Both the position numbers and the translations under genes were made by a program. From a virus: 64,000 nucleotides of DNA. Of this stretch, positions 5,771 through 59,777 are shown one piece after another (the first letter of the stretch is position 1; each line of letters starts with the position of its first letter). The notes under the pieces are model-generated. The model was given only the letters and a program-made list of their open reading frames with translations. It was not told where the DNA came from and did no database searches. Where the stretch lies: IMG/VR virus record IMGVR_UViG_3300025450_000013, one strand, 5' to 3'.

Positions 5771-5809
5771 TTACAAATAGATATAGAAATTGGATGGATA
5801 AATAGTCAT
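5771..5809 (-). pseudogene. Truncated homing-endonuclease N-terminus (MTIYPSNFYIYL*)
   Basis: 12-aa ORF starting in the cassette; resembles [19 protein letters not shown] of the gene at 16694. Confidence 0.65.
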
Positions 5810-5874
5810 GCTGGTGCTCCTCTAAAGCATTAGAGTAGGTGGGTTCCCCAACCGCGACCTACATGACTATTTAG
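5798..5874. repeat. Endonuclease-leader cassette copy A (orphan)
   Basis: ATAAATAGTCATG-CTGGTGCT..AGCATTAG-A-GTAGGT.GGTT..AACC.GCG.ACCTAC-ATGACTATTTAG. Confidence 0.85.
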
Positions 5875-5880
5875 TAGTTC

Positions 5881-6075
5881 TTATTTTTCAAAGAAATCAT
5901 CACATTCATCCCAATCTTCTAAATGTGATTCCCATGCCTTCTTGAGGTTCTTTAGTGGACGGCGATCACGACGCATTTCGGACTCTGGGCGTTCCAATTT
6001 GCGACCACCATATTTACGGTCTTCTTCTTGTAGTTCAACATAAGGATCTTTGAAAGTGTTTTTTAGTTGCTTCAT
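5881..6075 (-). CDS. Hypothetical protein
   Basis: ORF following the DUF6433-like gene. Confidence 0.6.
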   Translation of the reverse strand: MKQLKNTFKDPYVELQEEDRKYGGRKLERPESEMRRDRRPLKNLKKAWESHLEDWDECDDFFEK

Positions 6076-6081
6076 GTTATT

Positions 6082-6531
6082 CTACCCTTGTGGTAATAAT
6101 CCTGGGAACGCTTCATTAACAAGCGCCTCAGTTAAATGTGGTACCTTCTGATCTTTTAGAATGATACCCATATAGACATCAGCCTCTTTAGGCTCTAGAC
6201 TTTCCAATACTTGTAGTAAAAGTTCTTTCTTTCTTTTTTCGGTGAGTGCGGGAGGTGTGCGTGGATGGTTTTCCATGAAAAGATAGATTTTATCCAATGC
6301 CTGTGACATATTGCTATAACCCATACCAGGAGGTAGGTCTGTTTCTTTCTTCCAATTCGGTGCTTCTTTGATTACATATGTAGCACCTGGATGAAATGTT
6401 CCTTTTAGGACATTTACCAAAGCAAATGTTTCATTTTCTTTTAGGACCGCAATACGGTCTTTCTTAGTCTTAGCCTTGCGGAAATCATCAAAGACTTCAT
6501 ATACATTTTTCTTACTCATTATATTCCTCAA
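6082..6531 (-). CDS. Conserved T4-like hypothetical protein (DUF6433-like)
   Basis: Follows rnh; LQVLESLEPKEA...LVNEAFPGLL. Confidence 0.7.
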   Translation of the reverse strand: MRNIMSKKNVYEVFDDFRKAKTKKDRIAVLKENETFALVNVLKGTFHPGATYVIKEAPNWKKETDLPPGMGYSNMSQALDKIYLFMENHPRTPPALTEKRKKELLLQVLESLEPKEADVYMGIILKDQKVPHLTEALVNEAFPGLLPQG

Positions 6532-7388
6532 AAATCGTTGATGGACTCAATCATTACTTTGAGGCCCTTATCTATAAAGTAGTTCAACATTTTCTCTTTC
6601 GTCGCCACTTTGGTATTTTCAAACGCGGAAACGATGCTTGCCTGAATGTCTCCTGGTATATAGTCAAAATCAACCAAAGTTTGATTACGTTTATAACCAC
6701 GTAGCATAATATCCGTAGTGCAGAAAGTTTCGGCATCCTGACTAATCCATTCCTGAAGACGTTTACTATTTATGACCTTTTGACGTTCGCCTGCCGCAAA
6801 GGTATTGTCTGGTGATAGAAAGTTAGGAATGCCATCACCACGGTCACCTTTAAGAATGTGTTCACGGATGAATGTGGTAGGGTTATCAATCTTAATGAAC
6901 CGCTTTAGAATAGGTGAATACTGGGTTACATTAGGATATTTCTGTAGTTGACCAAAGTCTTTGTCCGACGACAAAATGAGAATGTTACTGCTCGACGACA
7001 ATCTAGCAGTAAGGACGGCAATGATATCATCCGCCTCGGCACCTTCTACATCCAACACCTTGTAAGGGAAACTCTCTTTGAACTCATCGCGGATTTTGTT
7101 GAGAGTGTCAAAGATAAGGTGCCAATCAAGCCCACTGGCCTCGCGGTCGTGCTTGCGCTGGCTCTTATAGAATGGAAAAAACTCACGACGCCAATACTTC
7201 TTGGAGTCGCAACAAAGTATTACATTAGGATATTTTGATTTGAACTGTCTTACATTAGCACGGATAGTATTGATAGACATATGACGAATAAGGTCCTCAT
7301 TCATCTCATGCGATTTACTTATTTGTTTCAGGTGTTGCATCAAGTTGGAAATGAGGACCTGATTTAGATCCACCATGATATAAGACAT
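6528..7388 (-). CDS. rnh: RNase H / 5'-3' exonuclease (T4 rnh)
   Basis: VDLNQV, YWRR..FPFYKSQR, EADDIIA, SSDKDFGQL, GDRGDGIPN. Confidence 0.93.
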   Translation of the reverse strand: MSYIMVDLNQVLISNLMQHLKQISKSHEMNEDLIRHMSINTIRANVRQFKSKYPNVILCCDSKKYWRREFFPFYKSQRKHDREASGLDWHLIFDTLNKIRDEFKESFPYKVLDVEGAEADDIIAVLTARLSSSSNILILSSDKDFGQLQKYPNVTQYSPILKRFIKIDNPTTFIREHILKGDRGDGIPNFLSPDNTFAAGERQKVINSKRLQEWISQDAETFCTTDIMLRGYKRNQTLVDFDYIPGDIQASIVSAFENTKVATKEKMLNYFIDKGLKVMIESINDF

Positions 7389-7397
7389 TTTCTTTCC

Positions 7398-7886
7398 TTA
7401 CATTAGGGATTTAGCATACTTGCATCTGTTGGCGAAACCGTCGCCGTTCTCTGGATGGTCTTTAGTATAACCTCTTGGTCTTTCATAGGCAATAGCAACC
7501 AATAAGGCCTCATCAATGTTTGTGGTTTTATGTAGTGCCTTACCAACAGGCATTTCAGAACCTTGTGTAAGCTCCCAGTTTACGAAACGGGCCTGTGTAT
7601 CAAGGTCACCAATAGGTTTGTCTAGGTTATTGGCGAAGTGTTCCAGATCAGCAAGACGTTGACCACGCCATTGTGCAATACCAAATGCTGTATGATGGTC
7701 ACCCCATACGGAGCAACGTAGGTCTGTATAGGATTCCTGCATAAACTGACCACACATGGCAGCTGCTTGGAAATCTTTCCAACCAAGTTCCATTAATACC
7801 TTCTTTACATATAATGGTCGATCAATACCTTTAAGGGTATTCGGATCTACTGTATCTACCATATCATTCTTCCTCTTCTTTGGCAA
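7398..7886 (-). CDS. Phage tail-type lysozyme (Phage_lysozyme2-like)
   Basis: AAAMCGQFMQES...AFGIAQWRGQR...LDTQARFVNWEL...YERP. Confidence 0.8.
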   Translation of the reverse strand: MPKKRKNDMVDTVDPNTLKGIDRPLYVKKVLMELGWKDFQAAAMCGQFMQESYTDLRCSVWGDHHTAFGIAQWRGQRLADLEHFANNLDKPIGDLDTQARFVNWELTQGSEMPVGKALHKTTNIDEALLVAIAYERPRGYTKDHPENGDGFANRCKYAKSLM

Positions 7887-8265
7887 GTTTTTCTTTTGAC
7901 GCTAACATATCCTCAATCATTTTTTGGATTTGTTCCTCATCCATGTTTTCCATTGCTTTAGCATCCGCTTTGGAAATAATGGTTATATTATCTTCTATAA
8001 AAGGATGTAGGTGATGTTCAAAACCAAACTGACGATATACGGTAGCACGGAGAGCATCTACAACAAGGACAAGATCCTTTGTGAAAGACTCATCTTCAAC
8101 ACTTACATAATAGTTATCAAGTTCAGTGACAATCATTGTAGTTATATCGGTGACAATGGCATCTGCCATTTTCATATCAGCTCGTCTTGCTCTTTCTTCT
8201 AAAACTTCTCCTGGTACATCACGAACAACTTTGTGTTTTGGGAACTCGATAACTTTATCGGTCAT
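7864..8265 (-). CDS. Hypothetical protein
   Basis: MTDKVIEFP start, AAGGA RBS. Confidence 0.7.
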   Translation of the reverse strand: MTDKVIEFPKHKVVRDVPGEVLEERARRADMKMADAIVTDITTMIVTELDNYYVSVEDESFTKDLVLVVDALRATVYRQFGFEHHLHPFIEDNITIISKADAKAMENMDEEQIQKMIEDMLASKEKLAKEEEE

Positions 8266-8368
8266 TTACTTATCCTTATTCTTTATATCTAAGTAGGTTC
8301 CATACAATACCAAAAGCATAGAAATGACACCCACGAACATACCAAGATATATCATAGACCAAATTAGG

Positions 8369-11002: not shown

Positions 11003-11006
11003 TTAC

Positions 11007-11282: not shown

Positions 11283-11285
11283 AAC

Positions 11286-12705: not shown

Positions 12706-12711
12706 GTTGCC

Positions 12712-13767: not shown

Positions 13768-14218
13768 TACAGTTAGTTATACCAAAAACTTCACAGTAAG
13801 ATTTAGTCCAGTCGCCTGAAATCTTATCCTGTGCCTCTTTTAATGTCATCTTACCACTACATACTAAACTATGTAGCTTATTTTCAAGTTCATCTTTCAC
13901 ATGGGCATTCCATGGTAAAGTTTTATATGACTGTGGCCAAAGATTACTGATTTCATTAGAACCACCTAACTGTAAACTGATTAGGTGGTCTATCTCATAC
14001 TGACCTGGTTTGCGAGATGTAATACCATATATCTGATATGCCTTATTCTTTACATTCTGTGGAACATTCCTGACACGACCAGCATAACCAGGAACGCAAA
14101 CCTCTTTCTCTGTTACAGGAAGAGTTGCGCCTGGTGTTAGTTGATGGTTTGGCAGCAAAGGATCAAGTGCCATTGCTGGTGTGGTGACAAGGAGAAAGGC
14201 GAGGATTAGATTTCGCAT
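13757..14218 (-). CDS. Secreted HNH-like protein
   Basis: Signal peptide MRNLILAFLLVTTPAMA; YEIDHLISLQLGGSN..NLWPQ. Confidence 0.75.
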   Translation of the reverse strand: MRNLILAFLLVTTPAMALDPLLPNHQLTPGATLPVTEKEVCVPGYAGRVRNVPQNVKNKAYQIYGITSRKPGQYEIDHLISLQLGGSNEISNLWPQSYKTLPWNAHVKDELENKLHSLVCSGKMTLKEAQDKISGDWTKSYCEVFGITNCNGD

Positions 14219-16098
14219 GTGCCACTTGTGCAAGCTAGTGTCTGCACCCCTTCAACATTGTCTTCCATCTCAACCAAACTATCCCAGTCAAGATGTGTTG
14301 GAATAGAAGGCAGCATAGCATCATAAAGGTCTTTGGTTATGGCCTCATAAGGTGCTTGCCGATAGCTACCACCATCGTAAGGTAGGAACGATACGCCGGA
14401 CATCTCATCAAAGTGGTCGTAAACCCAGGCACCGACCTTCATCCATTCGTCCTCACGAACATTGATAGTGACTGATGGCTTGTGTTCCGCCCAACTTTCC
14501 TGATACACCGCCCATAGTTCTAGATGACTAATAGCGTTGATATCGTCACGAACAACGGCACCTTTTGGTGCTTTCTGTGGGAAGGAGAATACTGTTGTGG
14601 AGTCGGGCTTCATAACATCTGGTTCCCAAGGCACACCCTTTTCTTTCATAAACTTTGTTAGAGGATCTTTATTATCAGCCCGAACACGACGGATATAATA
14701 ATTAGAATGCCGTGGATGAATACCAGACGCGGAGTCGCATAGTTGCGATACTGTGCCAGAAGGCTTGACACAAGTAATAGCAGCGGCAGGATTAATACCA
14801 AGTTTTTCAGCCAGTCCATTATTCACCTCAACAGCATAGTCACGAAGAGAAGCAAGGCGTGCCTTAATCTCTTTATCATGTGGATTGTTAAACAACTTGG
14901 AGTCATAGATGCCTGTAAGTGATACACCAAGTAGGCGTTCTTCTTCGGCGTTCTTCTTCCAAACTTTTCTCAGGTAGGGAAAATCCGTAAGAGTAGATTG
15001 AAAAGTACCGAGGATAGTTGCAATCTTAACTTTATCTCTAATAGTTTCCATCGTGTCATCTGACCGCAGGACAACTTCAGTAAGGTTGCAAAAGCCATAT
15101 GGTCTAAGGATGATCTCCGAACACGGATTGGTTCCAAATGCTTGGTCTGGATTTCGTCTGCCATTTCTCGCAGCGATTTTTTGACATGCTTCACGACTGA
15201 ATAAACCTCTCTCGCCTGACTTGGATTCATATAATGATAACCACTCGGACATGAAAGATCCAATCTCTGGTTTCTCATTATAGACGGCCGAGTTGTTTGA
15301 CAATGCCCGTTGTGGGTTTGCTTCCCACCACGCACCCGCCTTGGCGTGACGCATACGGTCATCGGATAGGTTAGATAGAGAAATCATAGCAGAACGACGG
15401 ACACCGCCAACTACAACAACCTCACCAATCTTACACATTATATCATGACACTCAATGGAAGTCAGGCGACGACCATGAGCATTACGGAATACTTTTACAA
15501 CAAACTTGAATAGATCATTTAGAGGACCTGGGCCAGATGAACGACCACCAAAGGTCTTCAACGGAGCACCAGCAGGACGCACCTTGGTTAGGTCCCACTT
15601 TGGAATCTCACCTGTGTATAGGAGAGCAATAAGCATACGTAGAGCCTTAGCCCAACCTTCTTTGCTATCTCTCACGGAAATGGTGGTATCGGAGTCATAC
15701 ATCTTCTCCGGAATCTCTGGCAACTGATTAATGAACTGGCGCTCAACGGAGAAACCAACACCTGTTCCACATAGTAGAATGAACATGGCCTCATCAAAGG
15801 CCTTAGGGTCATCAATAGTTAGAAATGAACAGTTATAACCACATGTGTGGTCTCGCTCTAATGCCTTACCAGCAGTCATAAGGGACCGCATAGATGGCAT
15901 AACTTTTAGTTTGATAATGTAATCTTTTATCTCTTCACGATAAGGTGCCATATCAAAGTTATAAGTATCGGCGAGGTGATTAGACATAAAGGTAATATAA
16001 CGTTCAACGGTTTCCTCCCAATTTTCTCGACGGTTTAGTTCTGGTACATAACGAGCATATCTGGATTTATAGATGAATTCCTGGTAAAGTGATTCCAT
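14206..16098 (-). CDS. nrdJ: Class II (B12-dependent) ribonucleoside-triphosphate reductase
   Basis: YNCSF, GTGVGFS, GGVRRSA, TNPCSEI, TCVKPSGTVS, C-terminal CTSGTC; no beta-subunit gene in this window. Confidence 0.92.
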   Translation of the reverse strand: MESLYQEFIYKSRYARYVPELNRRENWEETVERYITFMSNHLADTYNFDMAPYREEIKDYIIKLKVMPSMRSLMTAGKALERDHTCGYNCSFLTIDDPKAFDEAMFILLCGTGVGFSVERQFINQLPEIPEKMYDSDTTISVRDSKEGWAKALRMLIALLYTGEIPKWDLTKVRPAGAPLKTFGGRSSGPGPLNDLFKFVVKVFRNAHGRRLTSIECHDIMCKIGEVVVVGGVRRSAMISLSNLSDDRMRHAKAGAWWEANPQRALSNNSAVYNEKPEIGSFMSEWLSLYESKSGERGLFSREACQKIAARNGRRNPDQAFGTNPCSEIILRPYGFCNLTEVVLRSDDTMETIRDKVKIATILGTFQSTLTDFPYLRKVWKKNAEEERLLGVSLTGIYDSKLFNNPHDKEIKARLASLRDYAVEVNNGLAEKLGINPAAAITCVKPSGTVSQLCDSASGIHPRHSNYYIRRVRADNKDPLTKFMKEKGVPWEPDVMKPDSTTVFSFPQKAPKGAVVRDDINAISHLELWAVYQESWAEHKPSVTINVREDEWMKVGAWVYDHFDEMSGVSFLPYDGGSYRQAPYEAITKDLYDAMLPSIPTHLDWDSLVEMEDNVEGVQTLACTSGTCEI

Positions 16099-16100: not shown

Positions 16101-16694
16101 TTACTTCCTCTTATATATTCTTCCTTTGACAAACCCGGATGGTATGTCATCTGTTTCTTTTATTCTCTTGCTTATAACACCATCATTTATCCAGATAGTG
16201 TCTTGACAAACTTTTGCTGTTTCACTGGTAAATTTTGTTATGTTAGCAGCAGCGACAATCGCTTTTTTTTCTTCTGAAAGTTTCCATGTTCTTCCTTTTG
16301 ATGCTTGTATTCTTTTATTTCTGTTTCTGGCCCAAGATGCTCTCTGTGCTTCGGAAACTTTTTTATTTCTTTCTTCTGTATATTCCATTATCAAACCGGT
16401 GTTACCTTCACCACCATCGGTTCTATTATGTAGAATGCCGGTATTAAGGTCTTTACGACCATACCAACGAATATAGAATCTTTCTAAAGCAAGAGCACCG
16501 AGGTCTGTTAGATTGGACTCCATTATAACAATTCTATTTTTATCAGTAGGCCTTATAATGGAATGAGATTTGTGTTTCTCCCACGCTCTGCGACCTTTTC
16601 CCTTACCAATATAATAAGGTGTAAGTTCATCTTTACGCAAATAAGCATAAATGTAGAAACCTGGAGGTTGATTTGAGGATGTATAAATAGACAT
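16101..16694 (-). CDS. Free-standing GIY-YIG homing endonuclease between thyX and nrdJ
   Basis: Start MSIY (GGGAG RBS); [36 protein letters not shown]; C-terminal WINDG..P.GFVKGR domain. Confidence 0.88.
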
Positions 16695-16760
16695 GCTGGC
16701 ACTCCCTAAAAGTGTTAGAGTCCGTAGAGTTCGCACCTCGTGACGGACATGTCTATTTAG
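16683..16760. repeat. Endonuclease-leader cassette copy B
   Basis: Perfect 12-bp terminal IR TAAATAGACATG/CATGTCTATTTA enclosing two hairpins. Confidence 0.88.
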
Positions 16761-16774: not shown

Positions 16775-17512
16775 TCACCAAAATGGCCACCAAGGTTTTT
16801 CTTTAGCGTCTGGATTCTCCATCTGTATTGGTGCAGGATGCCAATACTCTCTCAATGACGGGAAGTGTTTTAGAATTTCTTCCTGTGCATCAAGAGCAAT
16901 CAAACGATGTTCTTTCTGTGTGCCTACTTCCGCACGAACATCTATCCAGTGAATCCAAGAACGAAGTGTACCTGACATATATAGTCGTGTCTTGGTTAGA
17001 CCTTCTGGTAAGATTGCTCTAGCCTGTTCTTTGGCGATACCAAGTTCAATAGCAGTCTTATAATGTCTAACTGCAAGATCACCAACAACACCTTGAAGAT
17101 AATTCCAATCATATTTAAGATTGTCATCATCCGTCTCAATACTATTCTGACGGTTCTTGGCATCCTGTAGTCGTGCTTCTCTTGTAACGAAACCCATATC
17201 CTTTGTTGGATCAGCATAACGCTGGCTAAACTCTTGGAATGAAAATGACCGATGACGGATAATTTGATGTGCTATATCACGGGTTGTCTGAATATCCATA
17301 GTGATAGACACCATCTCAAATGGAGACCAGTGCTTATTTTTGATTAGGTATTTGAGAAGTTTAGGTGCTGTTAAGGTATTGTGTTGATTAGACGGGTTTG
17401 ATACTCTGGCTGTGTAAGCAATAAAGGCCTCGGCACCGATTGCTCGTTCTGTTTGTGTTTCCCATGCCGAAAGTATCGGTTGTGTCAATGCTATAATTTT
17501 CGCGGTATTCAT
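16775..17512 (-). CDS. thyX: Flavin-dependent thymidylate synthase
   Basis: [34 protein letters not shown]. Confidence 0.95.
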
Positions 17513-26639: not shown

Positions 26640-27245
26640 TTATTTTCCGTAACGGGAAGGGACTCCGGTTTTTGGGTTGACAAGGTATGCTTCAAAATCT
26701 ATCTCCGGGTGTAACTTTGCTAGTTGTAATAACATATTTAGGTTACCTTCATGGTCATCCCACATTCGGATCTTGTTGAACTTACCGCTGTCAATATACT
26801 TACGAATAACAACAGCCTTAGATAATGGTGCCGCATTACCACCACCAAATACATTACCAGAACGTTCTACATGAACCTGGTCAATAGGGAATCCATGGTC
26901 ACGGAACTTTTTGAGAAACATATCTTTGTCGGATACGTCTGCTCTTGCGGTTACGATAATGGTACGAGAGTGTGCGCCTTGATGACCAACAACCAACTGG
27001 GCCCGTCTAATCATCTTCTCAATAGGTTCTGCTTTATCATGGAAATACTTACCAGACCTAAATTCACCAAAGTCTAGTCGTTCACCTGGTTTTGGTTTAT
27101 AATGTTTTAAATCTTCGGATGAAAGACGGGCAACAACCTTGCCGTCTTTTACAACATTTGTCTTGGCATTAGGCATAAACAACGTATCGTCAATATCAAA
27201 GATGTTTAGTGTACCTTGACCTACTTTTGTTTTAAACTTTTTCAT
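26640..27245 (-). CDS. HAD-superfamily phosphatase
   Basis: [19 protein letters not shown] motifs. Confidence 0.8.
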
Positions 27246-27793
27246 TTTTTCTTTTCTCTGGTCTCTATATATTTTTTCACTCTTTCATCAGTTTCTTTTG
27301 TTAGTCCTTTATTCCAAGGTATTTTACCCTTGTGCGATTCACTCTGACTTTTTATCCACTTTTCACCTCTTGTTCTTGCGGCATGCCTTGCTCTTTCTGC
27401 TTGAGCCTTTTTCCATTCGGGATCTTGTTTTCTTTTTTCCATTGCTTCTTTATGCTTAGAACTATTCTTCATAGATTTACGCATTTTTTCATTTCTTTCA
27501 GGTGAACCAACAAAACCGGAAGTAGATTCACCACCATCAGTTTTATTCATTAGTATTCCTGTAACATTATCTTTACGACCATACCAACGAATGTATCTTC
27601 TTTCTAAAGCAAGAGCACCTATTTCAGTTAGATTGGACTCCATAATAACTATTTTTGATTTATCTTTTGGAACTGTAACTGTTCTGTGTTTAGTCCATGC
27701 TCTCTGTTTTTGTCCCTTACCTATGTAATAAGGTGTACCATCTTTTCTTAGATAAGCATAGACATAATAATGGTGGGGTGAATAAATAGACAT
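27242..27793 (-). CDS. Free-standing GIY-YIG homing endonuclease with NUMOD3-like tail
   Basis: Start MSIY; [39 protein letters not shown]; [13 protein letters not shown]. Confidence 0.88.
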
Positions 27794-27859
27794 GCTGATA
27801 CTCCTAAACAGTATTAGAGTCCGTGGGTGTTGTCGCACCGTGACGGACATCCTATTTAG
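27782..27859. repeat. Endonuclease-leader cassette copy C
   Basis: CTGATACT/AGTATTAG and GTCCGT.GGTG..CACC.GTG.ACGGAC; its CTAAATAG also provides the stop codon of the upstream gene. Confidence 0.88.
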
Positions 27860-29102
27860 GCTTCCATGATTTTTGCGCAAGGAAATTGGACCTTGAGAAG
27901 TTCATCCTGTCTACCAATTTCCACGCTTGGCCATCAACTGAAAGACAACCAACATATCCTTCTGGTGTAGTAACTTTATATCCACCATCCGGAGTATGTA
28001 GAAAAGTTCCAATATCGTTTACCTCATCAAATTTGCGAATAAGCATTGTCTTGGCATCTATGAATAGGTTCTGTAGTTGGAATATGTTTTTTAGTCCAGC
28101 GGCATTCTTCTTATACCAACCAACAACCTTATTCTTTTCCATAGTTCTTTTTTGTTTTGTAGCAGGCATCTTGGCATCGGCAATCTGTTTATCATACTTG
28201 TCTGAAACAAACTTGATGATTTCATTCACATGACCGGCACCCATGTGTTCGCCTGCTCGGACTTTTTGGTTATAATAAGTCATAATAGGAATACGATATG
28301 TATCGTTAGAGGCAATCTCGTTTAGTAGTGCCGCAGGTATTTGTCTGAATAGATTACCTGCCTGTGAAAGAATACCAGACAGTCTATCGTTTTCTGCCTT
28401 GGTTAGTGTGGCCTTACCTGTGACATCCATGAAACGATTTGTCCTATACCAGACATTGCGTGATGAATGTAACCGCCCAATATCAACATCGAAGTGAGTT
28501 TGAAGATTGGCCATACTATTACCGATGTAAGTAGTATGAAAAACAATTCCCATCTTAGCTGCCATAACCTGTTTGGCAAGTGTAGTACCTTCTGGTACAG
28601 CATAAGTAATCGTATTAGGCCTAAACGTAATATACTTTTTACCATCAATGGTCTCTGATTTTAGTTCATCATGTGAAAACATAAAATCACCATGGATGAT
28701 ACCTTTAATTCCAAGTTCTGGTAGATACTTTAATGCCAAAGATAGTTTTTCAGCCAAACCACCCGAATGGTTACTCCGAATATCCGATTGGGTGTAGTTT
28801 AGTTTGGCACCTTTGTTAAAGATACTTTTAGAACCGACAAAGAACTTACCGTTATCTGGGTTGATACCGGCATAGAGTGCGGGCGCGCCATCGAACTTAG
28901 TCCGAAGAATGAGACCACCAGAACGGCGGGCCTCATTCAGAGTTTTACCGTCATCGGCAAACATATCTCTTAGAGAGATTAAAAACTGTATAGCATTTCT
29001 TGTACCAGCAACACCACCTTCCAAGACAGCATCCTCAATATGTGTGAGGTGACGGTCTTTCTCGGCAGCGGATTCGGTAATATAAGTTGAAAATTTTTTC
29101 AC
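27852..29102 (-). CDS. Ligase-like nucleotidyltransferase (DUF6267-like) with CTS-like start
   Basis: GTG start [10 protein letters not shown] (TAGTG overlap); HLTHIED, TKFDGAP (KxDG), GDFMF, EGYV, KLVDR. Confidence 0.7.
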
Positions 29103-45792: not shown

Positions 45793-45975
45793 TTAGGCAA
45801 CTTCTTTAAAATATTTCTGTAACTCTGGTGATAATTTCTCTAGTAGATGACCGCCAATACCAACTCTTACTATATTGGCTAACTCTATAATATTATTGGT
45901 ATCTATTGTATTATCAGGTGTAAACTCATACAAACGTGCAGGTGAATGTTTATGATGTTTATCCTTCTTGGTCAT
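45793..45975 (-). CDS. Hypothetical protein
   Basis: AAGGAG RBS. Confidence 0.6.
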   Translation of the reverse strand: MTKKDKHHKHSPARLYEFTPDNTIDTNNIIELANIVRVGIGGHLLEKLSPELQKYFKEVA

Positions 45976-47530
45976 AGTAGATTTTCTCCTTTAGGTAATC
46001 TATCAAATAAGGTTCATCTTTAACTAAATTGGCCCAGTGATCTCTCTTTTCGGTTAACTTATGAGCAGCCCACAACCAATCTTTTCTATGTTGTTCATTG
46101 TAATTGAATGAATCCAACGAGTGTTTATCTGTAGCAAACAAATTCAATCCTGTAGCAACACAGTTTATGCCTGAATTATTGAAACTATAATTTTCAAATC
46201 TAGAGTTGAAAACATTAATAAAAGAATTTTCATGTTTAATGGTTGGGTCATAAAAATCTTGACTGTATTCACGACGACCAACATCTTTCCAATATTCTGT
46301 ATCATCTCTATGTGAAAGAGCATAATGGAGTGCTACAAACTGTGAGAACCCGTTAAATATCTTTCTACATTCGTAGGTGTATCCGTCTTTATCAATCTGA
46401 CTTACATATCCATCTGGTACTCTATCTAATACACGAAGTAACCGCACTAGAAACATATGAACACTAAAGAGACCATTACTTTCCAGTGGTTCAATAAAAC
46501 CTGCGGATAATCCAATTGGTACTACGTTTTTTTCCCAAAGTTTCTTATATATACCAACACGGAACTTTAACTTCTTATATGTCAATTCTTCGTTGTAAAG
46601 GTTCTTTTCTTTGAGATGTTCTTTAAACTCTTCTAAAGCACCTTCATCATCAATATACTTATCAGAGTAAACATAACCTGTACCAATACGACTCCATAGT
46701 GGAATGTTCCACACCCATCCATTACCGATAGCATGGCCATCAGTATATCCAACCAATTGGTTCTTCTTATCTGTATATGGTGCTTGAGTGGCCCATGCTG
46801 AGTTGTTTGGAAGAATATCTGACATTGATACAAAAGGAACTTTTAACTTATCATATAGAACTGCTTTGAAACCGGTACAATCAATGAATAGATCAGCAGT
46901 AATCTCTTCACCACTATCCAATTGCAGATATTCAATACCATCTTCATTGAGTTTGATATCTTTAACTTCTGCTAGAATATTCTTAACACCTTTAGGTATA
47001 GAATATTCATTTTTCAACCATTGTGCAAATTGGACAGCATTAAAATGATATGCACAATCATTCTTCAGTGTGTATCCAGGAACAATATTATCTTTCTCAG
47101 AAATCTTATTCTGATTAACTAGAGCCATAATGGGATAGATACAAGAAGCATAATCACTAACATGAGTATCAGGAAAAAACATCTTCTTGAAATACCAATC
47201 ATTCTTTTGTGAATGATTACCTTCTACATTAAGATCACCAAAAGGATAATGGAATGATCCAGCACCTTTTTTGTAGAAGTCCGTGAACCTAATGGATAGT
47301 TTATATGAGGCATCACAATGTTTCATCCATTGTTCATCTTTGATACCCAACAGGTTCATCCATTGATTAATAAATCCTAAAGTGGACTCACCAACACCAA
47401 CTGTAGAAATATTAGGGCTTTCAATTAGGACAATCTCACGACCAGGTAATCTAGCAATAAGAGTAGCAGCAGTCATCCATCCAGCAGAGCCACCACCAAC
47501 TATAACAATTTTTTTAATCTGCTTACTCAT
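45959..47530 (-). CDS. Flavin-dependent tryptophan halogenase-like protein
   Basis: VGGGSAGW, VGEST, K, FIDCTGF, GWVWNIP (WxWxIP), FIEPLES. Confidence 0.9.
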   Translation of the reverse strand: MSKQIKKIVIVGGGSAGWMTAATLIARLPGREIVLIESPNISTVGVGESTLGFINQWMNLLGIKDEQWMKHCDASYKLSIRFTDFYKKGAGSFHYPFGDLNVEGNHSQKNDWYFKKMFFPDTHVSDYASCIYPIMALVNQNKISEKDNIVPGYTLKNDCAYHFNAVQFAQWLKNEYSIPKGVKNILAEVKDIKLNEDGIEYLQLDSGEEITADLFIDCTGFKAVLYDKLKVPFVSMSDILPNNSAWATQAPYTDKKNQLVGYTDGHAIGNGWVWNIPLWSRIGTGYVYSDKYIDDEGALEEFKEHLKEKNLYNEELTYKKLKFRVGIYKKLWEKNVVPIGLSAGFIEPLESNGLFSVHMFLVRLLRVLDRVPDGYVSQIDKDGYTYECRKIFNGFSQFVALHYALSHRDDTEYWKDVGRREYSQDFYDPTIKHENSFINVFNSRFENYSFNNSGINCVATGLNLFATDKHSLDSFNYNEQHRKDWLWAAHKLTEKRDHWANLVKDEPYLIDYLKEKIYYDQEG

Positions 47531-50085
47531 GAAAAGAAATCCTCTAAACTGGCCGTTTTCTCGGCCTTCCACCCAATACTATCTAGTATAATTTTGAGAG
47601 GGTCAAGAAATGCCTTCTCAAATTGTGTATTATAATCTATATATTTAGATAAGGCAAATTCTTCCGGGATGCCGCCTTGTGGAAAAGATATAACATTGGA
47701 TTGGATGGTGTTTGGTTCTTTAAGGAACACAAACTTTAGTTTCTCACCGTTGTTGATTAGTGGATACTTAGTATCCAGTTTATGACTACGTAGAAAGTGA
47801 TTATATACGAGAGCACCACGCACATGAATAGGTGTCCCGCTTCCGTAGATAGACTTCTTATCAGCATACTTAACGAGACCATTGAGCCCACGAGGAAACG
47901 ATATGTCCGACAAAGGTAGATTTTCAAAAGAAGACCTGAAATCTCTAATAAAAGACTGAATATCTGTTTCGTTGCCGTCAAATATGACATCTACTGCCTC
48001 TCTTAGTTTCTCTCTACATGATGATGGAGTGGAAGACTTGACCATTTCAAGTCCCATAACTTTCTTCTTTGGTTTCTCGTATTGAACACCTTCATTGTTC
48101 CATACACTGAGAATGTATCTCTTCTTGGCGGTCCATATGGCCTTATCACATAGACCTTCTCTCTTCATAAAGATTTTTTGTTGAAATACATTAGTATAGT
48201 CACCAAGGTCTCCACAAGCGGTATCAATAACAGGTTGTATTTTATTCTCACATACTTTATCAAGGAAGGAGATGACTCTTGCCGTATCACCAGTGCCGAG
48301 GTCTTCACCAATAGTCTTGCCCACAAGCGGACCAAGGCGTAGGTAAACCGAGTCTGTATCAAGCGCAATGACATAATCCTCTCCTGTTGTCTTTAGTATT
48401 TTATTGAGATACTGGTTAAGTGTTCTTTCGATCCACCGTATTGAGAGTTGGCCAGTCGTCGTGACCGCAATCGCGTTACGTAGATCAAAAAACCTGAAAA
48501 ACTTGGAGCCAAGCGCACCATAGAGGGAGTTGAGTGATACTTTTTTAGAGAGTTGAAGATTGTTATACTTGGCGATTTTATTTTTAAGTTCTTTCTTTTT
48601 CTCAGGGTCTTTTTCATTTTCATAGGCCGCCTCGGCATCTAGCATCTCCTTCTTATACTTCTTACGATCAGCAAACATCTTCTCAACCATCTCTGGCATA
48701 AAACCTTGCTTGTCACGGCGATAGAACTGGCCATTAGCAGTTAGACATACATTGCTATCCTTTAAGGCAGATAGATCCAACTTACGGGCCAAAAGACTAT
48801 CAACACTAATATTGCTTGAAACAAGGCTGCGCATAGCATCATCGTAATCAACAGGTTCAATAATAGTCTCAGGGGAGATATTACTGCCCATAATGACACT
48901 AGGATACTCACTATTAACATCGAAACTAGCAACCCAATTATGAAATCCAATGATGGGATCTTTAACATAGGCACCCACATAAGCAGCCTCCTTTTCGTGG
49001 CGTTCAATAGGTGGCACAACCTTGTTCTGTGCCTTCAGATGATGGAAACAGATAACATCCCACATACGGACTTGTGCGAACACATCCTCAAAGTTACATT
49101 TGTTATCATAGGACAAAGTTAGAGCGAGTTCAATCAACTTGTTCTTATCATCAATCTTGTCAACGAGGTCAACGTCTTTGATGTTATAGTCGATGAACTT
49201 TTGATAGTCCTCCTTATACAGGTTGAACAAGGTGCCAACCTCTTCATAAGACAACTTTCGTTCACCAAGTTCTTCGTGTGCGATGTTGTCCAACTTATAG
49301 GACTCTTGTGACTTACCGTTCTTAGCATATCGTTGGTACAGGTCAAGCAAGTCAAGTGTGGCAATACCAAGGATTGAGTATGACTTAATCTTACGGTTCA
49401 TACCAAGGTCAACCATCTTATCGTTGATCACACCCCACGGAGATAGTTTCTTGGCCTCGTTTTCACCCATTAGTTTGCGAATACGATTGACCATATATGG
49501 TATATCGAAGTTCTGGACATTCCAACCTGTGATTACATCTGGATATTCCGATTGCCACCAACCAAGAAACTTACGAATAAGGTCAAACTCATCCGCACAT
49601 TTGAAGTATGTAACATCATCACGGGTGTTGTTATACACACCACAACCAAAGGTGGTGAACTGACCATCCATCTTCACGGTGATAGCAGTCAAAGGACCAA
49701 GAGCATGTTCTGGTTCAGGGAATCCACCACCATCAGGTTCACCGACCTCGATATCGATATTGGCCACTTTGATAAGGGACATATCCCAATCAACTGTGCC
49801 TTTGAACTCATCGGCAATAAAGCAATACTGATAACGAGTGTTGCCGTATACCTTAAAGTTCTCCACATTATCATACTGTGAAACAAAATCACGGGCATCA
49901 CGGATCGTACCTGGTTTTACTTTACCCAAGTATTCGCCATAGATTGTGGTGTATTTGGTGGGTGTGTTGGAAGGTACAAAAAGAGAAGGGTGATATTCGA
50001 CTTTATGCCTCACCCTTCTCCCTTGCTCAACACCTCGGTATAGGATCTTTCCACCCCATACTTCAACGTTTGTGTAAAATTTCAT
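47527..50085 (-). CDS. Family B DNA polymerase (T4 gp43-like)
   Basis: DIEV exo I, GWNVQNFD, YNIKD, SFDVNSEYPS, KVSLNSLYG, DTDS, KKRY. Confidence 0.96.
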   Translation of the reverse strand: MKFYTNVEVWGGKILYRGVEQGRRVRHKVEYHPSLFVPSNTPTKYTTIYGEYLGKVKPGTIRDARDFVSQYDNVENFKVYGNTRYQYCFIADEFKGTVDWDMSLIKVANIDIEVGEPDGGGFPEPEHALGPLTAITVKMDGQFTTFGCGVYNNTRDDVTYFKCADEFDLIRKFLGWWQSEYPDVITGWNVQNFDIPYMVNRIRKLMGENEAKKLSPWGVINDKMVDLGMNRKIKSYSILGIATLDLLDLYQRYAKNGKSQESYKLDNIAHEELGERKLSYEEVGTLFNLYKEDYQKFIDYNIKDVDLVDKIDDKNKLIELALTLSYDNKCNFEDVFAQVRMWDVICFHHLKAQNKVVPPIERHEKEAAYVGAYVKDPIIGFHNWVASFDVNSEYPSVIMGSNISPETIIEPVDYDDAMRSLVSSNISVDSLLARKLDLSALKDSNVCLTANGQFYRRDKQGFMPEMVEKMFADRKKYKKEMLDAEAAYENEKDPEKKKELKNKIAKYNNLQLSKKVSLNSLYGALGSKFFRFFDLRNAIAVTTTGQLSIRWIERTLNQYLNKILKTTGEDYVIALDTDSVYLRLGPLVGKTIGEDLGTGDTARVISFLDKVCENKIQPVIDTACGDLGDYTNVFQQKIFMKREGLCDKAIWTAKKRYILSVWNNEGVQYEKPKKKVMGLEMVKSSTPSSCREKLREAVDVIFDGNETDIQSFIRDFRSSFENLPLSDISFPRGLNGLVKYADKKSIYGSGTPIHVRGALVYNHFLRSHKLDTKYPLINNGEKLKFVFLKEPNTIQSNVISFPQGGIPEEFALSKYIDYNTQFEKAFLDPLKIILDSIGWKAEKTASLEDFFS

Positions 50086-51206: not shown

Positions 51207-51369
51207 AATGTTCCCTCACAAGTTCAATAATGTTGTTAGCACAAGTACCGCACACAGGACCACAATCAAGGTCCTTTAGAACGGTACCAACGCTTGGTTT
51301 GGTTTCTCTGCCCTTGAGATAATCTATAATCTGTGTATCAGTCAGGACATTACAAGAGCAAATAATCAT
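51187..51369 (-). CDS. bfd: Bacterioferritin-associated [2Fe-2S] ferredoxin
   Basis: MIICSCNVLTD...CGTC. Confidence 0.8.
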   Translation of the reverse strand: MIICSCNVLTDTQIIDYLKGRETKPSVGTVLKDLDCGPVCGTCANNIIELVREHYESLHR

Positions 51370-53264: not shown

Positions 53265-53339
53265 TGGAGCGGAGACTGTGTAATCGAAACACAGATTCCA
53301 AGGTGGGAACCTTGGGTAATACCTTTATACGACCTCCGC
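53265..53339 (-). tRNA. Atypical tRNA-Gly (CCC or TCC reading) with encoded CCA
   Basis: GCGGAGG-TC-GTATAAAGGTATTAC-C-CAAGG-TTCCCA-CCTTG-GAAT-CTGTGT-TTCGATT-ACACAG-TCTCCGC-TCCA. Confidence 0.8.
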
Positions 53340-54999: not shown

Positions 55000-55000
55000 T

Positions 55001-55991: not shown

Positions 55992-55992
55992 C

Positions 55993-57127: not shown

Positions 57128-57624
57128 CAGTCTTTGGACTCCTCAAATGCTTTCTCTTCTTCCTGGTATTCTAGCCATATATCATACTCTGATTCCAACT
57201 CCATGGCAATATGCTCTGGTAGATGGTCGCGCCATTCATCATCGGAAAAATCATAATCATAACATTCATCAATACCATCGGAATACTCGCCGACAAAACA
57301 CATACCTTCCTCGCGGTAAGAGGCATCAACGGTGAAACCTAACTCTTCCATTTTCTTATAGAAAGCAATAGGCGGAGACCAGGCCGTATCAAAACCTAAC
57401 TCCAGTTCCTTATTAGTCTCCATGCCGATGAAACCGTTGGCAATATCCCATTTGGTTCCCCAATGCTCAATATGCCACTCGTACCAGTCATCCTTCTTAT
57501 CCTCAGGAAGAGGAACAAACTCTTGAAAAAACCTGTTTTCCTCAAATGCCGCTTTGGCACGGGAAATCATAGCCGGATCGTTATGTGATAGGGAGAGATT
57601 ATTAGAACACCAGTTAGGGCACAT
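57127..57624 (-). CDS. DUF1281/YubB-like ferredoxin-fold protein
   Basis: PNWCSN..WYEW..HWGTKWD..FDTAWSPP..EEGMCFVG. Confidence 0.78.
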   Translation of the reverse strand: MCPNWCSNNLSLSHNDPAMISRAKAAFEENRFFQEFVPLPEDKKDDWYEWHIEHWGTKWDIANGFIGMETNKELELGFDTAWSPPIAFYKKMEELGFTVDASYREEGMCFVGEYSDGIDECYDYDFSDDEWRDHLPEHIAMELESEYDIWLEYQEEEKAFEESKD

Positions 57625-57658
57625 AATGTATTCCTTTTTCAGTTTCATTTTATAACAT

Positions 57659-57704
57659 ATTATAGCACAAGGAATATACTGTGTAAATGCGACATATTGT
57701 CGCA
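57659..57704 (-). promoter_or_regulatory. Early promoter with palindrome (copy 4)
   Basis: TTTACA-17-TATAAT; TGCGACA-N3-TGTCGCA at 57688-57704 abuts the -35. Confidence 0.72.
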
Positions 57705-57831
57705 CCCTGTTTACATTTGTTTATGTTATTTCCAGCATAATCGGTTATTATGTCAAAAATAGCATAACCGATGTTTACATTAAAATGATCTATAAATGGG
57801 TCAGGAGACGGTCATATGATCTGTTTATAGA

Positions 57832-58095
57832 TCAATCCATATTACCGAAGTCATTGTTGAGGCGAGAAGGAGGAACGGAACCACCACCACTGGAGGAACT
57901 GGTGCTGGCATTAGGAAAGTTATGGTGTGTAGCATTTGATGAAGTAGAACCTTCACTCCATCCAGGATTTTCCCAAGAGAAGGCCGGTATCTTATGTACC
58001 GGCTCTCCACTTAGGGAATGGTATTGAGCATTAGCAACCGTGGAGAATACCACCATTGAGATCAAGATCAAATATTTCATCATACATCTCCTCAT
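57832..58095 (-). CDS. Secreted hypothetical protein
   Basis: Signal peptide, Ser-rich; start probably at MMKYL. Confidence 0.55.
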   Translation of the reverse strand: MRRCMMKYLILISMVVFSTVANAQYHSLSGEPVHKIPAFSWENPGWSEGSTSSNATHHNFPNASTSSSSGGGSVPPSRLNNDFGNMD

Positions 58096-59100
58096 TCATA
58101 TCAAGTTCTCCAAAAACTGGTCTGTCGCCGCTTCCCAAGAGAAATGTTTTGCTCTTTTTACGGCATCTTTTCTATCTAACATATGGGCACCAATAATGGC
58201 CTCTTCCAAGTCGTTATCATGTAATACACCAGAAACATTATGTTCAATAATATATTCATTCACATCATTACGGAAGGCAGCAACAGGAAGACCTGATGCC
58301 ATACCTTCTAACACAACCAATCCAAACGTATCAGTCAAAGAAGGCCAGGCAAATACATCATGCTTTCTCAACTCATTGGCAATCTCATACTTATTCTTTT
58401 TACCAAGAAAGTTCACATTAGGATACTTTGCTTTGTATTCTTCCAGTTGTGGTCCATCACCAATGAGTGTCTTGCGTATCCAACCATTCTTGATAGATAA
58501 AAATGCCTCAAGGTTCTTTTCAGCCGATATACGACCAACATAAACTGCCTTGATAGGACCATTCTTGTCCCGACTTTCTGGGTCAATACAAGGACTAAAC
58601 AAAGATGTATCTACTCCTCGTGTCCAGACCTTGGTTTTCTTTATACCGAGTTTAGCACAGTAATCAACCATGGCGGGGGTAGGTACCAAAATATTATGGC
58701 TGTTTCTATGAAACCAACGAAAATACTTGCCAGTAACTCTTGGTGAAATATAAGCATGTTCATACAAATAATCCGGAAACTTAGTATGGAAACTTGTAGT
58801 GTATTTTCGTTTTTGTTTTTTACAGGTGTATCTGGCGGCAAGTCCTATTGCTCCTTCTGTTGCGATGTGGACATGGTCAGCATCCCTCAAAGCCTCCTCA
58901 ACCAAACCAATAGGAAAAATAGGCATATAAATGCCAGTAGAAGGCTGTAGTGGTACAGTCAAACTATATTGGTCTGGCCCAATAATAGAAACTTCATAAC
59001 CTTTTTCTATCAAACATTTTTTCGTCATCTCAATAGTAGTTTTTACACCATTTATTTGCTTTTCACTTGAGGCATCGGAAAATATAACAATCTTAGTCAT
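58096..59100 (-). CDS. GT4 glycosyltransferase, Agt-like (diacylglycerol glycosyltransferase)
   Basis: Q.NGV.TT, HIATEG.IGL.AR, TTSFHTKFPDY, FRWFH, WTRGVD, VGRISAEKN, TDTFGLV.LE.MASG.PV. Confidence 0.82.
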   Translation of the reverse strand: MTKIVIFSDASSEKQINGVKTTIEMTKKCLIEKGYEVSIIGPDQYSLTVPLQPSTGIYMPIFPIGLVEEALRDADHVHIATEGAIGLAARYTCKKQKRKYTTSFHTKFPDYLYEHAYISPRVTGKYFRWFHRNSHNILVPTPAMVDYCAKLGIKKTKVWTRGVDTSLFSPCIDPESRDKNGPIKAVYVGRISAEKNLEAFLSIKNGWIRKTLIGDGPQLEEYKAKYPNVNFLGKKNKYEIANELRKHDVFAWPSLTDTFGLVVLEGMASGLPVAAFRNDVNEYIIEHNVSGVLHDNDLEEAIIGAHMLDRKDAVKRAKHFSWEAATDQFLENLI

Positions 59101-59708
59101 TTCTTTACTCTTCCTAATATCCATTCTTCACCTGGACATTCTTTTGATTGTTTGTTTTTTACACCATTATTCCACCACTTGAAACCTGCTCGGCGTCTAT
59201 TGGATTCAGCAACTACACTTGATAGTTTTTCTCGGTGTTCTTTTGATTGCCAAACATGATTACCAGAATCAGATAACTCTTTCTGTTTTTTCTCACTTCT
59301 TTTAGAAAAACTTTTTCTATTCTTTTCAGATTGTGCTGGATGTTTACCTTCTTTAGCCAACTTTTTTAGTCGGTTGCTATTTATTTCAGCAACCATAGAA
59401 ACAAAATCTGGGTCAAGAAAACGATGTTCTCCACTTTTTACCTTTTCCATTTCACGGAGAGAAGCAATCTCTGACTTTTCTTCTGGTGTAAGGGATACGT
59501 GTCCTGTAGTCAGCATTGCCCAACAAGAACCCCAATCACCCTGACTTTTATGGATGTTGTAGTGTTCTTGTGAAGTAACACATTTTAGGTTATCTATATT
59601 ATTATTTGTGTGGTCACCATCTATATGGTGAATGTGGTGTCCCTTTGGAATAGGACCGTGATGTTGTTCATAAATACGACGATAAATACGATTACGATAA
59701 ATAGTCAT
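59097..59708 (-). CDS. Free-standing HNH homing endonuclease
   Basis: Start MTIY; YRRIYEQHHGPIP..IHHIDGDHTNNNIDNL..EHY.IH; C-terminal WWNNG..P..W..GR. Confidence 0.87.
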   Translation of the reverse strand: MTIYRNRIYRRIYEQHHGPIPKGHHIHHIDGDHTNNNIDNLKCVTSQEHYNIHKSQGDWGSCWAMLTTGHVSLTPEEKSEIASLREMEKVKSGEHRFLDPDFVSMVAEINSNRLKKLAKEGKHPAQSEKNRKSFSKRSEKKQKELSDSGNHVWQSKEHREKLSSVVAESNRRRAGFKWWNNGVKNKQSKECPGEEWILGRVKK

Positions 59709-59777
59709 AGGCTGGTGCTCCCAAATAGCATTAGAGTCCGTAGGTGTTAGCGCACCGTGACGGACAGTCCTATTTAG
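59697..59777. repeat. Endonuclease-leader cassette copy D
   Basis: CTGGTGCT/AGCATTAG and GTCCGT.GGTG..CACC.GTG.ACGGAC between ATAAATAG and CTATTTAG. Confidence 0.87.

Follow-up and report, generated by a model that had tools for sequence, protein, structure and literature searches.

What is known of how phage genomes tolerate toxic homing endonucleases comes almost entirely from T4 and Aeh1, in which control takes the form of an mRNA hairpin and nearly all of the genes run in the host's direction. The stretch of viral DNA analysed here, a 64,000-nt window (IMG/VR record IMGVR_UViG_3300025450_000013), poses this question at four places, 5798-5874, 16683-16760, 27782-27859 and 59697-59777, where one cassette stands at the starts of nuclease genes of unrelated families. 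All four copies listed by the original prediction are present with the motifs it described: a 7-nt loop, a one-A linker, hairpin 2, a late-promoter-like box, GGAG and an M-S/T-I-Y start. Four such copies are far beyond chance. Covariance models, which had these copies in their training sets, score them at 60-85 bits, and a covariance-model search found no fifth copy in the window. Support independent of these scores comes from hairpin 2, which lay outside the search pattern yet occurs in 105/105 distinct cores. The cassette copies and their genes are laid out as follows.

5798..5804, plus strand: copy 1 antisense box of late-promoter type, lying within codons 2-4 of the opposite-strand ORF; promoter role suggested by the T4-family consensus
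5810..5863, plus strand: copy 1 predicted two-hairpin RNA (hairpin 1 5811-5833, linker A 5834, hairpin 2 5835-5862)
5868..5874, minus strand: copy 1 sense late-promoter-like box
5771..5809, minus strand: 12-codon stub left by deletion of a GIY-YIG-like gene, whose 166-aa allele is intact in L473
16682..16689, plus strand: copy 2 antisense box, perfect T4 late consensus TATAAATA
16695..16749, plus strand: copy 2 predicted two-hairpin RNA (hairpin 1 16696-16718, linker 16719, hairpin 2 16720-16748)
16754..16760, minus strand: copy 2 sense late-promoter-like box
16101..16694, minus strand: GIY-YIG-like free-standing endonuclease, 197 aa, between thyX and nrdJ; empty allele L232
27782..27788, plus strand: copy 3 antisense box
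27794..27849, plus strand: copy 3 predicted two-hairpin RNA (hairpin 1 27795-27817, linker 27818, hairpin 2 27819-27848)
27853..27859, minus strand: copy 3 sense box, sharing bases with the recoded stop codon of the DUF6267 gene upstream
27242..27793, minus strand: GIY-YIG-like endonuclease, 183 aa, paralogue of the copy 2 gene; empty alleles L315, L317
59670..59703, plus strand: copy 4 antisense boxes (box 59697-59703; tandem boxes 59670, 59682 in repeated R-I-Y codons)
59711..59766, plus strand: copy 4 predicted two-hairpin RNA (hairpin 1 59712-59734, linker 59735, hairpin 2 59736-59765)
59771..59777, minus strand: copy 4 sense late-promoter-like box
59097..59708, minus strand: HNH endonuclease, 203 aa, between metallophosphatase and glycosyltransferase genes; empty allele L391

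By comparison with L473, the copy 1 stub is a deletion derivative of the GIY-YIG-like gene. Two GIY-YIG genes and one HNH gene had been named; the copy 4 gene is HNH (HNH_3 match, E 3e-17). The copy 2 and copy 3 nucleases, 44% identical to each other, have no Pfam match, and their GIY-YIG label is by motif, annotated homologues and phrog_314 (E 3e-5, copy 2 only). Copies 2-4 show in-frame read-through of the cassette; the family as a whole is not enriched for it. All four window copies are co-oriented, with no gene here for an antisense promoter to serve.

The pattern of base changes indicates that what is conserved in the cassette is a two-hairpin RNA of ~55 nt that runs antisense to the nuclease mRNA. 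It is composed of an 8-bp stem, a one-purine linker and then a stem with two invariant bulged Gs, and loop 1 carries an anti-Shine-Dalgarno. Counts of G·U versus A·C pairs favour the antisense strand at 79:0 and 16:2, and at 244:7 in a set fetched without the 5' arm of hairpin 1. The last ratio corrects the original placement of the fold on the coding strand: it belongs to the plus strand, opposite the nuclease mRNA. The antisense fold is also more stable than the sense fold in 153/163 cases, and on the coding strand hairpin 1 acquires A-C mismatches and the four window copies fold differently. Two-sided changes were found at 13/19 pairs, including all 11 of hairpin 2, with 99% of alignment cells paired and a level of covariation that 0/500 shuffles match. 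The R/GYG motif reported as an internal loop is present, and its A occurs only opposite U (39/39, Fisher p 6e-19), which makes it an R-Y pair between two bulged Gs rather than a loop. These invariant bulged Gs, a fixed 6-bp helix and the fixed linker are the best-conserved features. The CC of the anti-Shine-Dalgarno is unpaired in 95% of 218 folds, and ten loop 2 sequences occur in both orientations, as expected if only complementarity to their own template matters. We found no covariation between the base before hairpin 1 and the linker, and no excess complementarity for loop 1-loop 2 kissing (1.62 versus 1.64 shuffled). HDV-like or hammerhead-like words raised the idea of a ribozyme, which was rejected because of a different topology, a U in place of the would-be catalytic C in ~40%, and the silence of Rfam.

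What had been read as an outer stem is, judging from its motifs, mostly two facing late-promoter boxes. Compensatory change holds for the two hairpins and fails for this outer stem, which is not conserved; it reaches 11-12 bp in copies 1 and 2 only and 7 bp in copies 3 and 4. Because 53/98 family members have no pair past the two 6-bp boxes, covariation of all three stems is not upheld. A sense box, recognized from sequence alone, lies directly 5' of the nuclease start in all four window copies and 139/145 others. The antisense box is kept in 121/145 copies fetched without using it, lies 5-8 nt before hairpin 1 in 196/221, and falls inside codons 2-4 in four codon registers across the family. 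On the window plus strand its 7-mer is depleted (7 observed, 16.8 expected), and 6/7 of the occurrences fall in cassette nuclease starts. The antisense box is still kept without a downstream host gene (co-oriented, 18/22 versus 55/63; p 0.5). Enrichment of the box 5' of ordinary window genes was weak and not significant (12/45; control up to 0.30). The T4-family consensus suggests that both boxes act as promoters.

Computation points to a closing stem that grows into a T4-style mask in some co-oriented copies only, in the window copies 1 and 2. Extra pairs between promoter arm and start codon number 1.2 in copies co-oriented with the upstream gene versus 0.3 in inverted copies, and cluster means for the same pairing are 2.0 versus 0.8 (p 0.01, few clusters). 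The computed cost of opening the start falls from 18.8/14.8 kcal/mol in read-through to 8.6/6.1 in late RNA for copies 1/2, and from 9.9/9.0 to 8.4/7.2 for copies 3/4. Computation gives copies 1 and 2 an mRNA hairpin over the ribosome-binding site and start that the late transcript cannot form; it is weak in copies 3 and 4 and absent from most inverted copies. For copies 1 and 2, the proposed start masking of read-through RNA may well serve as a secondary layer.

The family comprises 221 distinct copies across 197 viral loci, and its carriers are freshwater T4-like phages. A divergent copy also resides in Caulobacter phage Cr30 (NC_025422, 136922-137014), where both boxes are degenerate; this phage is in culture, making expression directly testable. 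Rfam covariance models gave no match over the element in the window or at 20 other loci, with E values up to 3-5 considered. This strongly covarying phage RNA family is absent from Rfam. Among the 8,495 candidate RNAs catalogued from IMG/VR (PMC10690425), the motif could stand unnamed. When three cassette variants were run by nucleotide BLAST against cultured phages, only chance matches came back, and there was no true match in T4, phiM12, RSP15, S-PM2, S-SRM01, Sf-CH1b, AG-345-L05 or HK022. A match in Aeh1 was discarded as lying inside a long ORF, and no model matched at an Aeh1 nuclease. Scanning one genome per prokaryote species yielded 10 pattern matches; 4-5 are real, all in metagenome-assembled bins where they probably sit on phage contigs, and the remaining matches lack hairpin 1.

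Genomic context indicates that the cassette travels with nucleases. The nuclease elements are optional insertions between conserved genes, with relatives carrying empty alleles; at three window sites, the empty alleles (L232, L315, L317 and L391) also lack the cassette. ORFs behind the cassette encode GIY-YIG or HNH proteins or no nuclease at all, and in 31 pairs near-identical cores precede unlike ORFs. Among GIY-YIG-like relatives chosen by protein, 34/53 are preceded by the cassette, always antisense. The idea of a portable, nuclease-independent control module, with real covariation, enriched at nuclease starts and absent from Rfam, is supported. The nuclease is inverted in its host operon in 69/136 cases; in T4, 1/15 such genes is inverted (PMC2988022). 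In inverted insertions, the host mRNA itself is already antisense to the nuclease, a point against the antisense brake proposed below. Contig joints between copies 2 and 3 were set aside as probable paralogue matches, and no clean empty-allele joint was seen among the contigs. On comparative grounds, then, we regard as established the strand and shape of the fold, the positions of both boxes, the travel of the cassette with the nuclease and its occurrence in both orientations.

Because the fold lies on the strand opposite the gene, the cassette is most likely an antisense brake, and we give about even chances to cis-antisense damping of nuclease translation combined with an outward promoter. 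The cassette would be a face-to-face pair of T4-type late promoters about 65-70 bp apart. From the inward one would come the nuclease mRNA; from the outward one, in codons 2-4, an RNA starting at the first base of hairpin 1. By its sequence, the promoter-like box on the opposite strand is placed so that this RNA would span the ribosome-binding site. Complementary to the nuclease leader along its whole length and displaying its anti-Shine-Dalgarno in a loop, the RNA would pair with the leader and lower nuclease synthesis late in infection; the two facing promoters may also interfere with one another. We infer that this RNA is made and represses. Since such a brake is base pairing, it could serve any ORF grafted behind the cassette. 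After a backwards insertion the outward promoter could serve host genes downstream, so the unit would be insertable in either orientation. Both promoters look late, and the antisense RNA would therefore be unable to gate early read-through; where such read-through crosses the gene, some copies may add the T4-style stem over the start codon. Hairpin 2 and its tail score as an intrinsic terminator in only 5% of copies (by our own implementation of a scoring formula), so the RNA may not be a discrete small species. No terminator was flagged at copies 2 or 3, and U content is not raised where needed. The 3' end would probably arise by Rho termination and trimming to hairpin 2. Against the brake, plain antisense pairing needs no invariant bulged Gs, fixed 6-bp helix or fixed linker.

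These features lend themselves to another reading of the antisense-strand RNA, as a shaped ligand of RNA polymerase or of a basic phage or host protein, which would alter elongation, pausing over the sense promoter or the stability of the transcript into host genes. BIV TAR forms an arginine-binding pocket from two single bulges around one pair, and HK022 put binds RNA polymerase through the beta-prime zinc domain and suppresses termination. The invariant junction, the two invariant bulged Gs around one pair and the free loops would suit a ligand, as would an RNA that begins at the predicted +1 and has a gene following in its direction in 119/192 callable copies. The putL outline is alike (predicted 8-bp stem I, C-G opening, G·U at pair 3, purine linker, bulged stem II), but the core model has no match in the HK022 genome or over putL, there even with filters off. 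Moreover, put contains a triplex and pairs A9 with G35, where the pre-hairpin-1 base and linker here lack covariation, and the unit is kept equally where only antisense DNA lies ahead. We consider a ligand possible, if doubtful. Slightly more doubtful is the broader proposal that the RNA is a specific ligand, of RNA polymerase or of a basic protein motif, and the cassette a universal adaptor by which any nuclease or DNA-binding ORF could enter a T4-like genome in either direction, with control over its own output and over transcription of the host genes beside it; selfish genes of lytic phages would then have a class of regulatory RNA that binds a factor.

The mechanism originally put forward, a three-way junction in read-through mRNA that hides the start site and that late transcripts escape, is unlikely to be the main function. 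It draws on the T4 precedent (PMC2988022), the longer closing stems of co-oriented copies, and the 11-12-bp closing stem and large computed read-through/late difference of copies 1 and 2. Against it, the covarying hairpins lie on the opposite strand, hairpin 1 carries A-C mismatches in the mRNA, coding-strand folds disagree, the closing stem is not conserved, and over half of the copies sit where sense read-through never arrives. We think it quite improbable that the outward promoter merely restarts host genes after backwards insertion and hinders deletion, with the hairpins stabilizing the 5' end. Host promoters are embedded in T4 seg and mob genes (PMC2988022), about half of the nucleases are inverted, and stubs retain the cassette and first codons; yet stubs show no excess in the inverted class (7 versus 5), a 5' stabilizer has no need of an exact shape, the window copies have no gene to serve, and co-oriented copies keep the box and fold more stably than inverted ones (-19.1 versus -16.9 kcal/mol). 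Very unlikely, lastly, is that the fold acts in single-stranded DNA as a signal for recombination, its extrahelical Gs resembling those of attC or IS200/IS605 ends, and moves or shuffles ORFs. The imperfect strand-specific hairpin with extrahelical bases would fit, ORFs do switch immediately after the first codons, and in L552 the copy 4 nuclease sits at the same site but lacks the cassette. However, the far ends of 181 ORFs have no 7-9-mer common to more than 16, three junctions have no target duplication except overlapping start/stop codons, no recombinase was seen at the window sites, and fixed promoter-box spacing and frequent G·U fit RNA.

The family suggests a second, widespread solution to nuclease tolerance: a conserved antisense RNA module, swapped among unrelated nucleases, that accompanies insertion in either orientation. 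Were the invariant bulges to bind a partner, the module would stand as a new class of regulatory RNA, not just another antisense RNA.

Among known systems, RBS-sequestering hairpins with a nested late promoter control I-TevI/II/III, segB and Aeh1 mobE (PMC2988022), and hairpins also precede endonucleases of fractured genes (PMC2677866). The cassette resembles these masks in its late promoter directly 5' of a homing endonuclease and, in copies 1 and 2, a promoter arm that can pair with the start region. The T4-type mask is a single mRNA-strand hairpin, with no second promoter or antisense fold described, and the I-TevI hairpin computes as folding better sense than antisense; the conserved cassette fold, in contrast, is not on the mRNA strand (G·U versus A·C 244:7). 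HK022 put RNA (PMC9378689) similarly has two stems, a one-purine linker and a bulged second stem right after the promoter, but contains a triplex in stem I, follows early sigma70 promoters of lambdoid phages and is sense to the genes served.

There are also antisense precedents. P22 sar has a two-stem structure with a terminator. This 68-69-nt RNA (PMC12197685) is a phage antisense of comparable size that prevents translation of an overlapping gene from initiating; unlike the cassette, which has no clear terminator, it belongs to a temperate phage, has the single target ant and is not portable. CfrI of the T4-like cyanophage S-PM2 is described as an antisense RNA over a free-standing homing endonuclease and the upstream gene's end (PMC2984593, PMC12197685), an example that such RNAs are expressed. 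It differs in being about 225 nt and tied to psbA and F-CphI; neither model found the motif in the S-PM2 genome, including the psbA/F-CphI junction. IS10 RNA-OUT/RNA-IN (PMC5006887) and IS200 art200 (PMC4513863) likewise place a cis-antisense RNA over the start of a mobile element's enzyme, with an outward antisense promoter facing the enzyme's own; against the antisense reading, single-copy IS10 lacks antisense control (PMC5006887). Neither RNA-OUT nor art200 has a sequence or model match with the cassette. Both rely on host sigma70 promoters and on one element and one enzyme each, whereas the cassette pairs phage late boxes with one two-hairpin fold across unrelated nuclease families.

Four cassette copies lie on the plus strand of the window with the sequence features claimed for them. 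Each comprises a folded unit, or core (hairpin 1, linker, hairpin 2), lying opposite a minus-strand ORF, with late-promoter-like TAAATA boxes on the coding strand (sense box) and on the opposite strand (antisense box, inside codons 2-4).

5798-5874, plus strand: copy 1, heading an ORF of 12 codons only
16683-16760, plus strand: copy 2, heading a 197-aa GIY-YIG-like ORF, paralogue of the copy 3 ORF (44% identical)
27782-27859, plus strand: copy 3, heading a 183-aa GIY-YIG-like ORF, paralogue of the copy 2 ORF (44% identical)
59697-59777, plus strand: copy 4, heading an HNH ORF
59670-59703: R-I-Y codon repeats at the HNH gene start, giving three tandem antisense boxes
5344-5670, minus strand: separate 108-aa GIY-YIG-domain ORF without a cassette, behind an early promoter downstream of the copy 1 stub
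3177-3248, 3848-3919 and 5677-5748, minus strand: a 72-nt repeat in three copies, each a sigma70-like early promoter
14206-16098, 16775-17512 and 45959-47572: class II (B12) ribonucleotide reductase, thyX and a tryptophan-halogenase-like gene

The original prediction of two GIY-YIG genes and one HNH gene holds for copies 2 to 4, the GIY-YIG-like label of copies 2 and 3 being based on a motif, phrog_314 and annotated homologues, with no Pfam match for either ORF; copy 1 heads only a stub. Because an intact 166-aa allele of the copy 1 ORF, with the same cassette, is present in viral locus L473, ~480 bp have been deleted at the window copy. The tandem boxes at copy 4 could strengthen antisense transcription or be a trace of repeated grafting. 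Within the 72-nt repeat, an imperfect palindrome (TGCGACA...TGTCGCA) is conserved ~25-30 bp ahead of the -35 box and is possibly an operator or activator site. The window comes from a T4-like freshwater phage that has not been cultured: its G+C content is 39%, the minus strand carries nearly all genes, its gp43-type polymerase has at most 48% identity to cultured phages and its DNA occurs in freshwater metagenomes. ARAGORN found no tRNA genes in the window, including at 53265-53339. The ribonucleotide reductase is ~65% identical to alphaproteobacterial phage enzymes, and together with thyX and the halogenase-like gene gives a weak hint of the host group.

The cassette is widespread. A first pattern, limited to promoter, start codon and hairpin 1, matched at least 118 viral stretches, and hairpin 2, although outside that pattern, was present in 105/105 distinct cores among the matches listed. 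At least 120 stretches matched a second pattern, which was confined to the downstream half, and a third scan gave at least 120 matches in metagenome contigs; among the matches listed in the metagenome set, the start codon was found in 103/111, the antisense box in 95/111 and the sense box in 108/111. A structural descriptor recovered 221 distinct elements in 197 loci, whose ORFs a simple motif rule classed as GIY-YIG-like (116), HNH (48), other (30), stubs (13) and cut off or without ATG (14). Those counted as 'other' include HNH-AP2, TnsA-like proteins and NUMOD3-bearing ORFs without a recognised nuclease domain. ORFs without such a domain follow the cassette at L005:1080-1601, L006:2313-2831, L071:1930-2382, L099:3584-4003 and L108:5791-6207, and in L114, L117, L051, L067 and L082. 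This group has an acidic N-terminus and a common C-P-L-S-E-A-L-G-like motif, then NUMOD3-type basic repeats; its members could be decoys, repressors or carriers of an unrecognised domain.

Judged by allele comparisons, the cassette travels with nucleases and is tied to no single one. Cassette and ORF are both missing where thyX and nrdJ are joined directly in L232 (copy 2 site), DUF6267 and its neighbour in L315 and L317 (copy 3 site), and phosphatase and glycosyltransferase in L391 (copy 4 site). The copy 3 site is also occupied in L322 and L323, where both cassette and nuclease differ, and in L312, where the cassette is the same and the nuclease start differs. In L552, the copy 4 HNH (67% identical) occupies the copy 4 site with no cassette and is coupled to the stop upstream. 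Among loci picked by protein alone, 34/53 GIY-YIG-like and 3/16 HNH relatives bear the cassette, on the opposite strand in every case. In 31 pairs, cores that are at least 95% alike precede unlike ORFs, which, with the empty alleles, bears out the proposed portable, nuclease-independent unit. ORFs may be grafted at the short Ile-Tyr codon run that doubles as a box. At 27852-27900, the DUF6267 3' end is recoded relative to L315 and L317, and the sense box overlaps the new stop, as is typical when a free-standing endonuclease replaces the site it targets. In L231, only 18 C-terminal codons of a nuclease-like gene remain between thyX and nrdJ, with no cassette; the 5' part is lost here, the reverse of window copy 1.

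The conserved fold, as predicted from covariation, lies on the strand antisense to the nuclease ORF. RNAalifold and our own parse agree on an 8-bp hairpin 1 whose loop has 6-7 nt, a single linker base (A in 97/105 cores among the matches listed), and a hairpin 2 of a 6-bp stem, a bulged G, one R-Y pair, a bulged G, 3-4 further pairs and a variable loop. Two-sided changes occur at 13/19 pairs, including all 11 of hairpin 2, and 99.1% of cells are paired. No shuffle or slide control, each of which leaves relatedness among copies in place, came near the observed pairing and covariation; the first pattern had itself fixed five of the hairpin-1 pairs, but had not selected for hairpin 2. On the strand that faces the ORF, G·U is in excess of A·C, at 79:0 and 16:2 for positions where the first pattern allowed both and at 244:7 in the second-pattern set. 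For each of the four window copies, the consensus fold is obtained on the plus strand (z -2.2 to -3.1); the coding-strand folds are weaker and unlike each other. The two hairpins originally proposed covary, but not as a coding-strand mRNA fold. At L126:487 and in L136, L138, L149, L178, L179 and L700, hairpin 1 is longer, with an extra inner stem or a large loop, but its base, the linker and hairpin 2 are unchanged.

T4 late transcription starts ~6 nt behind its box, which would place the 5' end of each transcript at the edge of the folded unit. The sense box sits 3-5 nt past hairpin 2 in most copies; TAAATA precedes hairpin 1 in 121/145 copies among the matches listed in the second-pattern set, where the box lay outside the pattern. 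Boxes of the TAAATA type match the consensus for late promoters in T4 and cyanomyoviruses (PMC2984593). Across the 221 elements, the antisense box lies 5-8 nt from hairpin 1 in 196 and takes four offsets to the start codon, which argues that it is selected as DNA, not as Ile-Tyr. Its plus-strand 7-mer is depleted in the window (7 observed versus 16.8 expected), and 6/7 occurrences sit in cassette nuclease starts. What had been read as a conserved outer stem is mostly these two facing boxes, with no further pair beyond them in 53/98 copies.

By simple ORF calling, 69 of the 136 elements with both flanks callable are inverted in the host operon, 47 co-oriented, 15 head to head and 5 other; in T4, by contrast, 1/15 genes is inverted, without its own promoter (PMC2988022). 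Inward and outward promoters in one unit would solve both problems of backwards insertion, and the outward promoter might do nothing more than restart host-gene transcription. We consider this very unlikely: co-oriented copies, including all four in the window, keep the outward box (18/22 versus 55/63 in the comparison class) and fold at least as well, which argues that the RNA has a job besides serving host genes. Our leading reading, which we hold at about even, is cis-antisense damping plus an outward promoter. The predicted antisense RNA covers the ribosome-binding site and displays an anti-SD in loop 1 in 95% of copies, with loop 2 free to invert; pairing there would damp nuclease translation. 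Three observations sit awkwardly with plain antisense: both promoters look late, no intrinsic terminator was evident behind the folded unit, and the invariant junction and the bulged Gs go beyond what pairing requires. The last of these leaves room for a binding partner of the antisense-strand RNA, a possibility we rate as clearly weaker.

A junction in the mRNA as the main role is improbable. Co-oriented copies, those receiving read-through mRNA, do have a longer closing stem than inverted ones (1.2 versus 0.3 strict pairs; cluster means 2.0 versus 0.8, p 0.01, with only 8 and 16 clusters). The computed cost of opening the start region is 10.1 versus 7.5 kcal/mol in read-through RNA and 6.2 versus 6.0 in late RNA, the computed difference between the two RNAs being large in window copies 1 and 2 and small in 3 and 4. 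The proposed silencing of read-through therefore survives as a partial mask of the T4 type (PMC2988022), plausibly an add-on and not the conserved core. We give least credence to the fold as a DNA signal, since no conserved far end of the cassette-ORF unit was found.

Nothing in Rfam matched over the element, so the claimed novelty stands on that point; the literature searched does not describe the cassette, although a large catalogue of candidate RNAs may list it without a name. Caulobacter phage Cr30 (NC_025422, 136922-137014, minus) holds one divergent copy, detected by both models (29.8 and 32.5 bits, E ~4e-5); it lies immediately ahead of OZ74_gp204, annotated as a GIY-YIG endonuclease, on the opposite strand. 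Its hairpin 2 has canonical bulges; it may be decaying, given an extended hairpin 1, a two-base linker and one mismatch in each box. We regard the cassette as real and as a candidate control element, its function being predicted.

HK022 putL has a similar outline, yet did not score with the core model, and membership of the put family was rejected. A cyanophage GIY-YIG/NUMOD3 gene (L217:1330-1495; S-SRM01, MW015081 near 51250-51340) is preceded by a hairpin flanked by two late boxes on its own strand; this leader is of another type and has a weak model score. CfrI is an antisense RNA that a T4-like phage expresses across the gene of a homing endonuclease (PMC2984593). What is new here is an antisense-strand module with no Rfam entry; cis-antisense control itself is already known from IS10 RNA-OUT (PMC5006887), art200 (PMC4513863) and P22 sar (PMC12197685), whose mode of repression fits the ribosome-binding-site cover and loop 1 anti-SD of the cassette.
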